From the IMG/VR virus record IMGVR_UViG_3300033498_000048, positions 192,001 through 256,000 of that record: a DNA stretch of 64,000 nucleotides, one strand, 5' to 3'. The DNA comes from a virus (Duplodnaviria > Caudoviricetes). A model generated the notes under the pieces. That model was not told where the DNA came from. It ran no database searches and saw nothing but the letters and a program-made list of their open reading frames with translations. Shown piece after piece: positions 13,540-19,375 of this stretch; position 1 is the stretch's first letter; every line of letters starts with the position of its first letter. Made by a program: the position numbers and the translations under genes.

Positions 13540-13845
13540 ATCTACTCCTTTAATAAGTATGTTTAATATTTTTATATTTATTAATTATCATATTTTGATT
13601 GACATTAATATGGAAATTGTTTATGATACTTTCATCTTAATCCAACTTGGAGTCATAATGAGTTTAACATACACACAAAAAGAACACTACAACACATCAA
13701 AGATACTATTAAACATAGATATGTTCCAATTGTAATTAAGTATAATAAAGCTACAATTAGAGCATTAGACCATAAAGGATATTTGAAAGTGAATTATGCC
13801 ACTGGGGTTATTACAACAACAGATTTGGGAAATGAACCAATTTAA

Positions 13846-14934
13846 TTATGTACCATCGCTGAAGAATCCAAATATTAAATGATTGGATTCTTCATTGTTT
13901 AAATAATTTTCACGCATTGACATTCTAGTGTCTAAATTTGTTAAATCGTAAAAATAGTCTTGACTTGTTAGCCATGCAAATATAACTAAGGTCATTACAA
14001 TATCATCGTGTTTACCACGTTCAGCTTCATAGGAAGTTCCCTTCTTAATAAACATAGTCAACTCTGTAATTGTATTGTAATCTACTAATTCTAAGGTATC
14101 ACTTTCAATTAGATTTTTTAATGTACTACATCCTATTAATTTGGTCTTTTTAGTTTGTCTTATTCCAACAATACTTGAATCTGTTATTATCGTATCTCCC
14201 TGCTTAGATTTTGATGTTAGCATATTTTCATATTCATATTCATAATACAATATGTTTGCTACTATTGTTCCAACACTATTGGATTCAATTACAATATAAG
14301 CATCATTATACTTTTTCGAGATGTGATATGATTCATCTGCAAACATAAAAGGAACAATTTGATTGTTCCTATAAACAGCAACTTGTTTATATCGCTTCTC
14401 AGTGACATCAATTATTGATATTACAGAATAGTCTTTGCCCATTCCCTCAGCAACATCAATAATTGAAATGTACGAATTACCTTGAATTGGATGCTCATAA
14501 ATGTATAAAGAATCGTTGATAACTTCTAATGGTTGTTTGTGGGTTAATTGTTGTAATTTCTTACCTGATATTAATGTACCAGAACTTCCAAGGAAATTAC
14601 AATTGTGACTGAGTATTCCATTAGTGTAATAAACACTATCTGTTCCAACATCAATTAAATCATACATTTCAATTGGAACATCTATCAGCTCTTTGTCAAT
14701 AACAAAACAACCATCCATATTAGTATCAACAAAATCACCTATAACCAACTCAATTGCCGTTTTTATTCCATCAATGGTAACTAATGGATGATTATCAGAA
14801 CATACCAAGTTAGTTCCATTAGAAAAACTTAACTTGATTTGCCTATCTTTGTTAATTTTATTAATCCCAATAAACGGTTCAAACCCATTAGGTGTTAAAA
14901 CTGTTAATTGTAAGTTGTTTGTTAATGTTGTCAT
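13846..14934 (-). CDS. gp17: Terminase large subunit piece 3: split-intein C-fragment 2 plus nuclease domain
   Basis: After ...TNGILSHN the sequence reads CNFLGSSGTLIS, IIDVAEGMGKDYS, IESNSVG and HDDIVMTL, all T4-like gp17 C-terminal motifs. Confidence 0.95.
   Translation of the reverse strand: MTTLTNNLQLTVLTPNGFEPFIGINKINKDRQIKLSFSNGTNLVCSDNHPLVTIDGIKTAIELVIGDFVDTNMDGCFVIDKELIDVPIEMYDLIDVGTDSVYYTNGILSHNCNFLGSSGTLISGKKLQQLTHKQPLEVINDSLYIYEHPIQGNSYISIIDVAEGMGKDYSVISIIDVTEKRYKQVAVYRNNQIVPFMFADESYHISKKYNDAYIVIESNSVGTIVANILYYEYEYENMLTSKSKQGDTIITDSSIVGIRQTKKTKLIGCSTLKNLIESDTLELVDYNTITELTMFIKKGTSYEAERGKHDDIVMTLVIFAWLTSQDYFYDLTNLDTRMSMRENYLNNEESNHLIFGFFSDGT
14602..14934 (-). mobile_element. Split intein C-fragment IntC2 (111 aa)
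   Basis: Begins with Met and has no block A. VLTPNGF; block B VCSDNHP; block F MYDLIDV; block G SHN with +1 Cys. Same layout as atypically split TerL inteins (AceL-TerL type). Confidence 0.92.
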
Positions 14935-14949
14935 TATTATTCCATATCG

Positions 14950-16299
14950 TTATATGACATTGCAATTCAATCTATTATTTGTTGGATATACTGAAACCTT
15001 ATCAATAACATGACTATCAATTATTATTGAGTGTATTGTTCTTCCTATAAACGATTGTTTGTTTAGCCTTTCAACATATATTTTAACCCCGTTTTGCGAC
15101 TCGACTGATTTCTTCAATCTGTGTTTTAGTGGACTCTTTAATACCATGCAATCACTCGTAATTCCATTATACAATTCAATTATTTTATTTAATATTTCAC
15201 ATCCAATTATACTTTTACCAACAACTATTGGAATAGTTAAATTTGAATTAAATGCTAAACTAATAGCAGCATCATATATTAAATTGTTTGATATTTCAAA
15301 ATCGCGAGTACAATATTCTGGAGTTTGACTATTGTTAATTAATTGATATAAATCTCCAAATGTAATATTGTTACAAATTGAATTTTCGGATTTAATTATA
15401 ACTTCGGTATTAGCGGAACAACAATCATATTCTTGTGAGAAATTTTGTGTCCCAATATTACTTTCGGTTGTTTGTCTCCACGCTTCATCGCGTTCTGGGT
15501 GGTCATACCACAAATATTTACTCCTAACAAACTCATTTCTACCCTGTTCAGATTCAATCCACAGTTTGTAAAACAAATTCATACCTTTTGGAGTAGACGT
15601 GATTATCACCTTAGTTGTTTTTCCAGATGATATTACTGGGTAGGTTGATTCAAAAAATTCAACATCATTGTCAATATGGGCGAACTCATCACAGTAGAGT
15701 GTTCCAACTGATTTACCCCTGATGGAACTTGATGATGTTGCTGCACTAAAACACTTTGAACCATTCGCCAGTGTGATACTTGTTTTGTTCCAAGTTACAA
15801 CTCCAGGTTTTAAAAACCAAGGCAACTCCTCAAACATCTTACATAAACGGTCTAATATTTCTGCGGAAGTAGCTCCCTTATTTGCTAATATTCCAATCGA
15901 CTTATTACTATTGAATATTGCCTCATATAACAAATAGGCTGCTGCTGTTGTTGTATTGTGACTTACTATTCCATTTGAATAATATTGGTGTGATTCAGAA
16001 TCAACTTCAACATCATACATATTCTCGTATTCAGTTGTATTAGTAATTGATATTACTTTTGATGTACCGTTAATAGTTTTAATCACATCACCAATTATTA
16101 AGTCTTTAACAAATACTTCGGAATTGTATTCTGACATTACTATATGCGTATCTGCACACTCTAATTTTGCTCCACAATCAAACTCAACAACCCATTTTTC
16201 ATACGGAACAGTTTTCATTACATTTGTACAATTTACCCAACCTTCTGGGGTAAATACTTCCCAATCTGTAATTGGAATAACCCTCTCAAACTTCCTCAT
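14950..16299 (-). CDS. gp17: Terminase large subunit piece 2: IntC1, ATPase core, IntN2 and a degenerate ATPase-like tail
   Basis: SHN|TTTAAAYLL...ILANKGATSAEIL...SIRGKSVGTLYCDEFAHI...IITSTPKGMNLFYKLW...QEYD|CCSANTEVII. Confidence 0.95.
   Translation of the reverse strand: MRKFERVIPITDWEVFTPEGWVNCTNVMKTVPYEKWVVEFDCGAKLECADTHIVMSEYNSEVFVKDLIIGDVIKTINGTSKVISITNTTEYENMYDVEVDSESHQYYSNGIVSHNTTTAAAYLLYEAIFNSNKSIGILANKGATSAEILDRLCKMFEELPWFLKPGVVTWNKTSITLANGSKCFSAATSSSSIRGKSVGTLYCDEFAHIDNDVEFFESTYPVISSGKTTKVIITSTPKGMNLFYKLWIESEQGRNEFVRSKYLWYDHPERDEAWRQTTESNIGTQNFSQEYDCCSANTEVIIKSENSICNNITFGDLYQLINNSQTPEYCTRDFEISNNLIYDAAISLAFNSNLTIPIVVGKSIIGCEILNKIIELYNGITSDCMVLKSPLKHRLKKSVESQNGVKIYVERLNKQSFIGRTIHSIIIDSHVIDKVSVYPTNNRLNCNVI
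15313..15423 (-). mobile_element. Split intein N-fragment IntN2 (about 30-37 aa)
   Basis: CCSANTEVIIK...ITFGDLYQL fits block A (C1xxxxT6xV8) and the I..LY signature of short IntN pieces. The C-terminal boundary is approximate. Confidence 0.85.
15955..16299 (-). mobile_element. Split intein C-fragment IntC1 (115 aa)
   Basis: VFTPEGW; block B LECADTH; block F MYDVEV; block G GIVSHN with +1 Thr. No block A. Confidence 0.92.
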
Positions 16300-16837
16300 T
16301 TATGATTCCATTTATCAACTTCAATGTATCACATTGGTCACTAGGTGTGTCATTATTTACTAATATAGTATTAGCAAAATTTGATTTTAATATATTGCGT
16401 ATTTTAGTTTTTCTACCCTTTAAGAATGTTTGATTTTGGTTACTACCTCTATCCAAATACCGTTTTTCCAAGTCTGTTGATTGTAAACATATAATATGTA
16501 AGGTTGTGTTTGCAATCTTAGAATAATACTCGAATAAACTAGATGACGATAACCTATCCCCTTCAAAAATAATTGTTGAATTTGTATTAATATCATCTAT
16601 TATAAATTCTTTAAATACTGGCATTACATTCATAGCCAACTTGTCTGTTCCAGAAAATGTTTCTGTTGGATTAGAGTAATCGCCAACTATTTTAACAACA
16701 CCAATATCATGGTACTTAACCAATTTCATATACTTCTTCATATCGGTTACATCAACGTTCAATGATTCAATTAACCGTTTCATTAAAGATGTTTTCCCAG
16801 TTCCAGGCTCGCCTATTATTGCTATCATTTTTTGCAT
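16286..16837 (-). CDS. P-loop nucleotide kinase of a base-hypermodification cluster
   Basis: IIGEPGTGKTS; IFEGDRL; RGSNQNQTFLKGRKTK. Overlaps both neighbouring genes. Confidence 0.75.
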   Translation of the reverse strand: MQKMIAIIGEPGTGKTSLMKRLIESLNVDVTDMKKYMKLVKYHDIGVVKIVGDYSNPTETFSGTDKLAMNVMPVFKEFIIDDINTNSTIIFEGDRLSSSSLFEYYSKIANTTLHIICLQSTDLEKRYLDRGSNQNQTFLKGRKTKIRNILKSNFANTILVNNDTPSDQCDTLKLINGIINEEV

Positions 16838-17973
16838 ACAAATCCCCTAAGTGATTGATTGTTTGTTTTGTAATAAGTATCATTATAATCATTTTTAAAA
16901 CAATCGTGTTCAAAGTTCAACATTACAACTTGACCCGTGTTCCTAAAATGATTTTGTTTGTCCTTGTGTACACCTTTACATCTTGGGTTATATTCAAATA
17001 GTAAATACTCAGGTAAGCAATTATGTCTAATATTCCAGAATAAATCAAAACGTTTATTCCATTTAATTTCAGCATATTTTATTCTATCGTGAAACATATC
17101 ATTATACACATTTGGATAACGTCTATTTTTCCTATACCACGATTTGTAGCAGCACAAGGTTGATTCTAATGTAAAATAATTTACATCATTAATATAATTT
17201 TCTTCCTTGAACCTACCAATACATTCGCTTAACAGTACACCACCTTCAATTGTTAATGCTTCAATAATACCTTTATCATATTTACCATCAAAATCTGGAT
17301 TAGATTGTGAATGCCAATCTAAATCGTCACGCCCCAATACCTTGCACAAACCATTCCTATGTGATTTACTACCATTCAAATCATGTAAAAACAATGAACT
17401 ACAGCAAATATTTAAGCCTATTATTTTCAAATATTCTAAATATGAAAATGTCGATAGTCTCCCGAATAAGTAAAACTTATCAATTACAGTTTTCCATACT
17501 GTATCAAAATTATCAAATTGGTTGTCGGTATTGCACATTGATGTGAAAAAATTATGTTGAGTATCGTATTTAGAGATTATTTCTTTATAATTTAGAATCA
17601 TATTCTCTAATTTATTTTTTACATATCTCCTATCTGTATCCCAACCAAACTTAGTATAGTTTTCTCTGAAAAAAACAGAAAATTTGTCAATATCGAGTGT
17701 GTTAAAATCACTAAAATTCTCAAACAAAATCCATGATGTAATAATATTTTGACAACAACCATTTAAAAACACCAACCAATATTGCTGCTCTATATTTAAA
17801 TTGTGTATTTTAATTAACTCTGGAATGACATAATACACTGCCCCAGGGTGTGATTTATATTTTAAATGGAATTGATAAAACCTAATAAATGTTTCACGCC
17901 GATATTTGTGTTCCCTGAAATCAGAACCAACAACCAAGTTTGAATCATTGTTGCTGTTAATTTTAAATACCAT
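16825..17973 (-). CDS. aGPT-Pplase2-like (alpha-glutamyl/putrescinyl-thymine pyrophosphorylase clade; amino acid:DNA transferase)
   Basis: HPGAVYY; DTDRRY; FGRLSTFSYLEYL; GSKSHRNGL; FTLESTLCCYKS; YPNVYNDM. Confidence 0.75.
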   Translation of the reverse strand: MVFKINSNNDSNLVVGSDFREHKYRRETFIRFYQFHLKYKSHPGAVYYVIPELIKIHNLNIEQQYWLVFLNGCCQNIITSWILFENFSDFNTLDIDKFSVFFRENYTKFGWDTDRRYVKNKLENMILNYKEIISKYDTQHNFFTSMCNTDNQFDNFDTVWKTVIDKFYLFGRLSTFSYLEYLKIIGLNICCSSLFLHDLNGSKSHRNGLCKVLGRDDLDWHSQSNPDFDGKYDKGIIEALTIEGGVLLSECIGRFKEENYINDVNYFTLESTLCCYKSWYRKNRRYPNVYNDMFHDRIKYAEIKWNKRFDLFWNIRHNCLPEYLLFEYNPRCKGVHKDKQNHFRNTGQVVMLNFEHDCFKNDYNDTYYKTNNQSLRGFVCKK

Positions 17974-19375
17974 AATTTGTTCCTGTAAAATATTGTAATA
18001 TAGGTTTATGATATTGCTCTAACCAATCTTTGCCATTATCTTTAGTTAGTAAGAACTCATACCACTCCCTAGCACATTCATAATTACCATCTTTTTCTAT
18101 TATATTACCAAAAGAATTTGTTCCAACTCCATTCCAACCTTTGATATTTGAATTGTTTTTCCTCAACTCAACAAATTCTTTTCGGGCTTGCTCATATTCA
18201 TATGTGCCTAGTGATAACATCCCTTCATGTAAAAATGCTATCACACTAACACGTTCAGCATCGGGTTCATGTAACACTATCTCAGTATTACCATGTAAGC
18301 CTTGCATATTATTGATTAATAGTAAATCGCGGGGTCTAATATCAATTGCATATCCAATTTCAGGTAATACTAAATGTCCACCAGAATAATTATCATTTTT
18401 GGATAATACACATAAATTAGCAAAACCTTGTTCCATGTTTGCTGGGTCATAATGTGCTGAGGTTCTGAAATTTTTATTTACAGTAATAGTGGTAAATGGT
18501 GTGTTAGGTACAATGAACTTATTATCTATTTTATCACAAGCTGCTAGTTGATTAGCATACCTAATTGGTAATAACTCTTTGAATAATTGTGCCAGCCTTT
18601 CTAAAAATGGAAAAGATAATTTAAATTTTTCATAGTTGTTTTTTGTGTATGCCGTTTCACGCCCAAACGGAATCCTTGGGTATCTATCATAATATCCAGC
18701 AACCCCAGAGTTTACAAAGTTTGCGTATATTGTTTTTGATATGTACGATTTAACCAATTTACAATTATCTACAATAGTTGTAAATTCATATTGTCCAGAC
18801 TTAATTGTACTAATTAATTCAAAATACCACAATTCAAAATTAAAATTATTTATAATAACTTTATTAGATATGTAAACTTTATCGGTATATTCTGGTTCAC
18901 TTTTATACACCTCAAATATTGATTCCAACTGTAATATTGTTTCAGTTGTAATTCTTTTACAATTAATTAAAATATCCAGTATAGAAAGTTCTTGTTTTGT
19001 TGCTCTGACCCTATTACCATGTAATCTAGTGTTTATTTTTCCACTAGCATTACCTCGATTATCTGTTGGAACTGCTGCGTCAGCCAACCCATCATACCCA
19101 GATTCAACTTCAGATTGAGTGAATGCGTTTTTTCTAAACTTGAATAGTATGTATTTTTCTGGATTTGAATTAACACACCTAATACAATCATCTTTTGTTT
19201 GGCAGTTATTACCTTTAGCATATTTTAATAACCCTCCAGGGTTACAAGAATCATATAGATATAAGTCGGTATCTTCAGTTATTAATGTGTGGTATGATGT
19301 ATCATCTAACCACTCCCTAACCAATTCTTGTTTGTTAGTATAATCTTTAATTGTTAAAACTATTTGTTTAACCAC
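17963..19375 (-). CDS. TET/JBP-family 2OG-Fe(II) nucleobase dioxygenase
   Basis: FTTITVNKNFRTSAHYD (HxD), GGHLVLPE, LHGNTEI (distal His), ERVSVIAF. Confidence 0.82.
   Translation of the reverse strand: MVKQIVLTIKDYTNKQELVREWLDDTSYHTLITEDTDLYLYDSCNPGGLLKYAKGNNCQTKDDCIRCVNSNPEKYILFKFRKNAFTQSEVESGYDGLADAAVPTDNRGNASGKINTRLHGNRVRATKQELSILDILINCKRITTETILQLESIFEVYKSEPEYTDKVYISNKVIINNFNFELWYFELISTIKSGQYEFTTIVDNCKLVKSYISKTIYANFVNSGVAGYYDRYPRIPFGRETAYTKNNYEKFKLSFPFLERLAQLFKELLPIRYANQLAACDKIDNKFIVPNTPFTTITVNKNFRTSAHYDPANMEQGFANLCVLSKNDNYSGGHLVLPEIGYAIDIRPRDLLLINNMQGLHGNTEIVLHEPDAERVSVIAFLHEGMLSLGTYEYEQARKEFVELRKNNSNIKGWNGVGTNSFGNIIEKDGNYECAREWYEFLLTKDNGKDWLEQYHKPILQYFTGTNYGI

Follow-up and report, generated by a model that had tools for sequence, protein, structure and literature searches.

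A split just after motif N1 is an unusual intein arrangement that was first noted for a terminase by Dassa et al. 2009 (PMC2677866), and it is shared by the AceL-TerL and GOS-TerL inteins (PMC11766414). In the atypically split TerL inteins of the literature, the N-terminal fragment (IntN) comprises 25 to 37 amino acids and the C-terminal fragment (IntC) 104 to 122 (PMC11766414); the canonical endonuclease site of inteins lies between motifs N4 and C2 (PMC2677866). Here, we analyzed a stretch of 64,000 nucleotides (nt), hereafter the window, corresponding to bases 192001 to 256000 of the 305,782-bp virus record IMGVR_UViG_3300033498_000048, which originates from a microbial-mat sample and has direct terminal repeats and a G+C content of ~31%. 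The window holds a fragmented T4-type terL gene with two split inteins, and the N-terminal half of the second one, IntN2, runs into an additional domain of 128 residues (the tail; window positions 14953 to 15336) that resembles the ATPase of the terminase itself.

Intein 2 has the same host protein and the same post-N1 split as AceL-TerL and GOS-TerL, a Cys1 or Ser1 start, an HN end followed by Cys+1, and comparable fragments (IntN of 29 and IntC of 111 amino acids). However, while their IntN ends soon past the docking segment, the one described here continues into the 128-residue domain (194 residues in a relative). The order N-extein-IntN, slot, IntC-C-extein is that of the fractured genes, in which a free-standing homing endonuclease gene lies between the two split-intein halves (Dassa et al. 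2009, PMC2677866), although the slot is here without an endonuclease and contains a fragment of the host gene, which is fused to IntN2 and not free-standing. As in inteins with a nested homing endonuclease domain, the extra domain lies inside the intein unit and would be removed along with it; in contrast to those, the insertion follows motif N1, and it is a split intein that carries a cargo other than a nuclease. Compared to the ATPase domain of T4 gp17 (2O0H, 2O0J, and 3CPE), the tail is homologous, with the same predicted fold from the post-Walker A helix to Walker B, but it is without the P-loop strand, Walker A, and the catalytic Glu, and it stays below the Pfam threshold. Our literature search returned no description of a domain that derives from the host gene and is attached to the short IntN of such an intein.

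Sequence comparisons identify the tail as a diverged TerL paralogue

The middle piece of terL is a 449-amino-acid open reading frame (ORF), P0001 (14950 to 16299); like every piece of the gene, it is located on the minus strand. Its residues 116 to 292 (15424 to 15954) are the real TerL ATPase extein, which begins just past Walker A, includes Walker B (LYCDE) and the C-motif, and extends to QEYD; it is 59% identical to TerL of phage ACP17, and gives the only Pfam Terminase_6N match (83 bits) in the whole 306-kb, terminally repeated, complete genome. It is followed by IntN2 (residues 293 to 321; 15337 to 15423), a linker (residues 322 to 339; 15283 to 15336) that is partly kept in the relative (C..FEI), the tail core (residues 340 to 439; 14983 to 15282), and the last 10 residues with the TAA stop codon (14950 to 14982, the stop at 14950 to 14952). 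An earlier note on this DNA had placed the tail at 14950 to 15312, i.e., residues 330 to 449 plus the stop, and had described it as a degenerate duplicate of the ATPase fused behind IntN2.

When residues 325 to 449 were compared with residues 116 to 305 using BLASTP, residues 340 to 439 aligned with residues 123 to 221 (26% identity, 48% positives, E value of 5e-8), and the matched region was the T4-type TerL ATPase core from the post-Walker A helix to the Walker B strand. The pairings made by eye in the earlier note, including the change of Walker B DE to DS, were reproduced in this alignment. The Smith-Waterman score of the tail against the ATPase was 82, compared to 27.9 ± 4.6 in 2,000 composition-preserving shuffles (z = 11.7; Gumbel p of 1e-7), and the tail scored 26 and 43 against the controls IntC1 and the nuclease piece (P0002), respectively. 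A hidden Markov model (HMM) made from the ATPase segments of 79 relatives, and built without the phage's own segment, matched the tail at 19.4 bits (E value of 3e-8). Furthermore, hhalign aligned the two known tails with IntC1 plus ATPase with a probability of 89% and an E value of 2.5e-6, the alignment beginning two residues past the +1 residue of intein 1, i.e., right after the intein-1 site. The PHROG 5989 (TerL) profile matched the tail of the relative with an E value of 1.2e-5 and the phage's own tail with 0.042, and the relative's tail alone reached a z of 8.1 against the real ATPase. In the whole 306-kb genome, tblastn with the tail found, besides the tail itself, the real ATPase as the sole match (E value of 8.5e-5). 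At the nucleotide level, no similarity is left.

Together, the pairwise and HMM self-alignments, which had been proposed in the earlier note and turned out significant, confirm at the level of sequence that the tail is a genuine, although very diverged, paralogue of the TerL ATPase segment in the same ORF. With a G+C content of ~31% in the genome and only 26% identity, it could be argued that the resemblance arose by chance in an AT-rich, low-complexity frame. This is exceedingly improbable given the z of 11.7 over shuffles, the E values of 1e-5 to 3e-8 from independent profiles and the second tail, and the agreement of the predicted fold, and we consider the chance explanation refuted by these shuffle, profile, second-tail, and fold tests.

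The predicted fold is TerL-like but lacks catalytic features

Structure prediction, also proposed earlier, gave a TerL-like fold. In the ESM Atlas single-sequence model of P0001, residues 329 to 449 matched Terminase_6N models with template modeling (TM) scores of 0.70 to 0.74 (query-normalized). The best PDB matches for an alignment-guided AlphaFold2 (AF2) model of the tail (predicted local distance difference test [pLDDT] of 79) were T4 gp17 structures (2O0J, 2O0H, and 3CPE), although this model used a homologue alignment and is thus not independent of the homology claim. A single-sequence AF2 model of residues 306 to 449 was unusable (mean pLDDT of 33). In a feature-based search of the ESM Atlas, all matches to the tail were below 0.9 and are leads only, and the relative's tail had no usable match. 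The predicted complex of the tail and the real ATPase extein scored 0.00; as it was made with no control pairs, this score counts neither way.

No Walker A P-loop (RQxGKT/S) was found in the tail, where the homology starts past the P-loop and the linker is without G-K-T. At Walker B, the pattern hhhhDE is not matched by either the phage's own tail (IIIDS) or that of the relative (AIVDS), compared to LYCDE in the real extein. The own tail is also without the P-loop strand and the C-motif strand, and it represents a part of the fold and not a whole domain. Among the positions with ≥90% conservation across 52 real ATPase segments, 11 of 38 are kept in the tail, which is no more than its overall identity, and a Pfam scan (E value of ≤1) assigned no family to residues 325 to 449 or to the relative's tail. 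Because of the missing Walker A, the DS in place of DE, the few conserved positions, and the lack of a Pfam match, we conclude that the tail, as its sequence reads, cannot be an ATPase. It nevertheless shares descent and, by prediction, the ASCE core fold with the T4-type TerL ATPase, with only part of this core present.

The tail is predicted to be cargo of split intein 2

IntN2 starts with CCSANTEV right after QEYD and ends with GDLYQLI; it has 29 amino acids and contains motif N1 only. Both its position and its motif match the IntN fragments of 25 to 54 amino acids found in the related loci L003, L005, L010, L013, L015, and L030. The partner fragment IntC2 forms residues 1 to 111 (14602 to 14934) of the third terL piece, the 362-amino-acid ORF P0002 (13846 to 14934). 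It carries CSDNH with the block B His and ends with YYTNGILSHN, and the next residue is the C (+1) of the TerL nuclease extein (13846 to 14601 including the stop; starting with CNFLGSSGTL; Pfam Terminase_6C, 61 bits). Both inteins of the phage are split just after motif N1, intein 2 at the junction between ATPase and nuclease. By every feature compared, intein 2 belongs to the atypically split TerL intein family, and trans-splicing is predicted.

The tail is fused in frame to IntN2 and is followed by TAA, five sense codons in the same frame (a 15-nt spacer; 14935 to 14949), and the ATG of IntC2, with a GGA situated 7 to 9 nt ahead of this ATG inside the spacer region. Between IntN2 and IntC2, no free-standing homing endonuclease gene was found, just the tail, the TAA, and these 15 nt. 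A closely related allele without the insertion was detected in a 478-nt freshwater metagenome contig (run X2, filed again as X3), which aligns with 14444 to 14598 (2 differences) and 15421 to 15695 (25 differences). By joining 14598 to 15421, the contig skips exactly 822 nt, equivalent to (157 + 1 + 5 + 111) codons, i.e., IntN2 plus tail, stop, spacer, and IntC2. The joint has a 5-nt ambiguity, ATTGT being common to both junctions, and the allele reads an uninterrupted QEYD-CNFLGSS. Since precisely the IntN2, tail, and IntC2 unit is absent from this allele, the tail belongs to the intein unit and should, as intein cargo, be released with IntN2 on splicing, in line with the earlier proposal that the tail leaves with IntN2.

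In the intein-2-less X2 allele, identity to the phage drops from 99% on the nuclease flank of the empty site to 91% on the ATPase flank, a step suggestive of a recombination or co-conversion boundary located at the intein site. Further X2 contigs cover IntC1 at 97% to 99% identity. It was also noted that the tail ORF and the IntC2 ORF share the same frame, one TAA and five sense codons apart, and that read-through at this TAA would produce one continuous intein carrying an inserted domain; in L003, the IntN and IntC2 ORFs are in different frames, and the shared frame may thus be due to chance. We also considered whether the linker (residues 322 to 339) could be a relic of the IntC block G end or of the Walker A strand. 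No significant similarity to IntC ends was found (p of 0.12 to 0.21; hhalign probability of 0.1%), the comparison with the Walker A strand gave low-confidence columns only, and with neither match significant both candidates were rejected.

Related terL loci and a second tail

Among 80 related terL loci from IMG/VR, 20 bear an intein, which occupies site a, the ATPase/nuclease junction (site b), or both sites. The site-b IntN of L003 and L005 stops after ~25 to 30 residues and IntC comes almost immediately next, with no tail. Assigning endonuclease types by eye from motifs, we found in the slot a free-standing gene with GIY-YIG-like motifs in L010, L013, and L048, a gene with HNH-like motifs in L015, L030, and L075, and a 385-amino-acid Vsr-like gene in L057. 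In all, nine other locus types have a slot that is empty or that contains a free-standing endonuclease gene. The IntN/IntC slot has been invaded repeatedly by different endonuclease genes, and the locus studied here is, from its sequence, a fractured-gene layout without its endonuclease, in which the slot holds a TerL-like tail. It had been suggested in the earlier note that the tail could be a fossil left by the recombination event in which the gene was split. This was not supported, as the same split is found at the same site without a tail in L003 and L005 and with free-standing endonucleases in L010, L013, L015, L030, L048, L057, and L075, and intein 1 of this phage is split alike and without a tail. 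The tail thus does not fit as a scar of the gene-splitting event.

An exhaustive phmmer search with residues 330 to 449 against 1.84e9 representative proteins found a single cluster (E value of 2.3e-25), consisting of P0004 and its 99% identical twin P0005. These proteins derive from two 1.8-kb ENA contigs (samples ERZ27277814 and ERZ28612979) and have the same layout of IntN2 followed by a tail. The P0004 ORF comprises a third IntC-like element, the C-terminal half of the ATPase, IntN2, and a tail of 186 to 194 amino acids. Its third IntC-like element is inserted within Walker B, between LY and CDEF, and ends with ISN before C, with no penultimate His; the terL gene of this relative would therefore be in at least four pieces.

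Compared to the phage's own sequence, P0004 is 86% identical in the extein, 36% in IntN2, and 48% in the tail. The two tails differ by one in-frame indel, both have DS, and both frames are open. On the relative's tail, the match to the PHROG TerL profile extends to tail residue 154, which suggests, from this profile match, that the own tail has been shortened at its C-terminal end relative to that of P0004. The extra C-terminal 66 amino acids of the relative had no significant Smith-Waterman match to the remainder of the ATPase or to the nuclease piece. No further tails were found, either by tblastn with residues 306 to 449 against 50,697 phage records (no match at an E value of ≤1), by word-indexed protein searches with the tail regions of P0001 and P0004 (returning only P0001, P0004, and P0005), by searches of viral and metagenome contigs with the own tail, the relative's tail, and their alignments, or with a degenerate DNA pattern for the motif GRTI..DS.VID in viral contigs (0 matches).

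Origin of the copy

The best Smith-Waterman scores of the tail were obtained with the phage's own ATPase and those of L008 and L009 (82 to 84; mean of 58). In the tree, the two tails formed a clade that attached next to the group of L008, L009, and the own ATPase, behind a saturated stem. We read the tail as an old copy from the phage's own clade, which underwent fast early divergence followed by weak purifying selection. The copy would have arisen from a TerL of the same clade before the divergence of this phage and the one freshwater relative. The last 30 nt of IntC2 (14602 to 14631) and of IntC1 (15955 to 15984) are 83% identical at the DNA level, and recombination between the two paralogous inteins via this homology of the IntC ends is conceivable.

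Alternatively, the TerL-like segment could have been captured from the terL allele of another phage by endonuclease-driven recombination at the intein locus. The slot is known as a landing place for mobile endonuclease genes (PMC2677866), the flanks of the intein-less relative are unequal (99% on the nuclease side versus 91% on the ATPase side), and the tail scores no lower with L009 (84) than with the own ATPase (82), all of which would fit such an origin. On the other hand, no closer donor was found among the 1.84e9 representative proteins or the phage records, and the saturated stem branch makes the attachment point unsure, so we regard a foreign source as possible but on balance not likely. 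This alternative concerns the origin only and is compatible with the tail being a passenger.

Probable selective constraint on the tail

We consider it probable, while leaving considerable room for other explanations, that the tail is a dead partial TerL paralogue residing in the intein-2 slot as a weakly constrained passenger with no enzymatic role. In the proposed scheme, IntN2 would dock on IntC2, the exteins would be ligated, and IntN2 and the tail would be released together as a by-product of the ligation. After its fast initial divergence, the copy would have persisted as a passenger under a constraint that most likely has two parts, neither of them an enzymatic role: the appendage would have to remain soluble and able to fold as a half-Rossmann unit without interfering with the splicing of the sole terminase gene, and ribosomes would have to proceed as far as the start of IntC2, 15 nt farther downstream.

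Several observations weigh against this reading. From the tree, the terminal branches of the tails are ~1.0 substitutions per site, compared to 14% differences in the extein, and the tail thus appears to evolve roughly ten times faster than the extein, so that any constraint is weak. The own tail is shorter than that of the relative (128 versus 194 amino acids), which could reflect ongoing decay, and L003 and L005 do without any tail. One independent relative with a tail is known, as protein, and we infer splicing and tail release from sequence. Finally, the neutral simulation used below ran on the tail DNA with genome base composition and a simple mutation model, and its comparison was made at the amino acid level only.

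In a rival reading, the tail would be a neutral fossil, i.e., the dead and drifting leftover of a duplication, whose frame is open by luck or very recent history. In line with this, the copy is missing Walker A and the catalytic Glu as well as 27 of the 38 positions conserved in the family, there is no Pfam match, evolution is very fast, the own copy is C-terminally shorter than that of the relative, and the intein family works without a tail. Yet, the two lineages are at 48% identity with open frames and one in-frame indel, and when neutral evolution was simulated to 49% amino acid identity, both lineages were stop-free in only 12 of 4,000 runs. The replacements are also more conservative than under neutrality, as the mean BLOSUM62 score of mismatches was −0.05, compared to −0.61 ± 0.21 in neutral runs with stops forbidden, of which 4 of 1,045 reached the observed mean (p of ~0.004). 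Moreover, identity between the two phages is higher in the tail (48%) than in the functional IntN2 (36%). Neutral drift is therefore an unlikely explanation, and the earlier remark that the frame is still open despite heavy divergence applies to the tails of both phages. The earlier note had also raised a retained pseudo-ATPase acting as a solubility tag or regulator. The retention is the part that we favor, since the tail has been kept in a second phage, where it is 48% identical, its frame is open, and the replacements are conservative, while an active part for the tail is rather doubtful.

Such an active helper or gate would be a pseudo-ATPase with a positive role that is removed by splicing, for example, a basic appendage steering the acidic IntN2 onto the acidic IntC2, a chaperone for the incomplete ATPase fragments, or a cap that covers the motor interface up to the ligation of the nuclease domain. 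In its favor, the tail is kept under constraint in two phages, and both tails carry a derived basic charge (+4 for 14983 to 15282 and +7 for P0004 residues 256 to 353), compared to −5 to +2 (mean of −2.3) for the same columns in the 52 real segments. The phage's own IntC2 and IntN2 have charges of −9 and −2, respectively, whereas in L003 and L005 an acidic IntN2 goes together with a basic IntC2. The relative keeps an RG motif aligned with a family-conserved Arg, and atypically split inteins of the TerL type have been described as low-affinity (PMC11766414). However, the tail is missing from most members of the intein family, and the IntC2 of L013 is equally acidic (−9) while its tail-less IntN is neutral, which rules out charge complementarity as a rule. 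It is similarly improbable that the tail is a splicing-removed pro-domain that actively helps or gates the assembly of the multi-piece terminase; such a pro-domain might steer the low-affinity IntN2 to the acidic IntC2 or shield the ATPase interface of the still incomplete middle piece up to the point at which the nuclease domain is joined.

If the tail is indeed a passenger, a fragment of the host gene itself can be captured in the endonuclease slot of a fractured gene and then persist there as a pseudo-enzyme domain. Their short IntN (25 to 37 amino acids) is the reason why atypically split TerL inteins serve in protein labeling, and the arrangement here suggests that a domain of 128 to 194 amino acids is tolerated C-terminal of such an IntN, with a 292-amino-acid protein on its other side. 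This bears on how the short IntN enters IntC, i.e., by threading or by folding around (PMC11766414), as well as on the placing of tags or cargo at the C-terminal side of IntN.

Genomic setting of the three-piece terL gene

The first terL piece (30177 to 30948), which lies 14 kb from the second, was located by tblastn with ACP17 TerL and from its ORFs. Exon 1 extends to 30610 and ends with SRQMG, and exon 2 encodes a Lys and a 39-amino-acid IntN1 without a tail. The two exons are separated by a group I intron (~30300 to 30609; Rfam RF00028, 56.1 bits with a cutoff of 50, match at 30347 to 30649), which was missed by the default gathering scan of the whole window. The intron is situated one codon upstream of the IntN1 insertion site, and splice sites deduced from the sequence (after ggT, and between G and aaa) would restore SRQMG-K. 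The matching IntC1 forms residues 1 to 115 of P0001 (15955 to 16299) and is the long C-terminal half of the atypically split intein 1. It can be aligned to both IntC2 and the IntC fragments of relatives, ends with SHN followed by Thr+1, and has a weak match to Pfam Intein_splicing at residues 80 to 115. A scan of 13600 to 17000 for promoters and terminators gave results at chance level.

Directly upstream of the middle terL piece, a group of genes on the minus strand (16286 to 19375) encodes a Tet/JBP dioxygenase (PF12851, E value of 3e-25), an amino acid:DNA transferase (PF18724, E value of 1e-22), and a P-loop nucleotide kinase (PF18751), the gene for the latter overlapping the start of P0001 by 14 nt. 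Together, these genes look like a thymidine hypermodification cassette. A 377-amino-acid ORF on the plus strand (29072 to 30205) runs toward the IntN1 exon, overlaps its end, and has a match to ROS/MucR-type zinc fingers (E value of 1.6e-4). In its N-terminal part, this ORF looks similar by eye to the Vsr-like endonuclease ORF found directly upstream of IntC1-terL in L004, and it probably encodes the intein 1 endonuclease, which would have been displaced.

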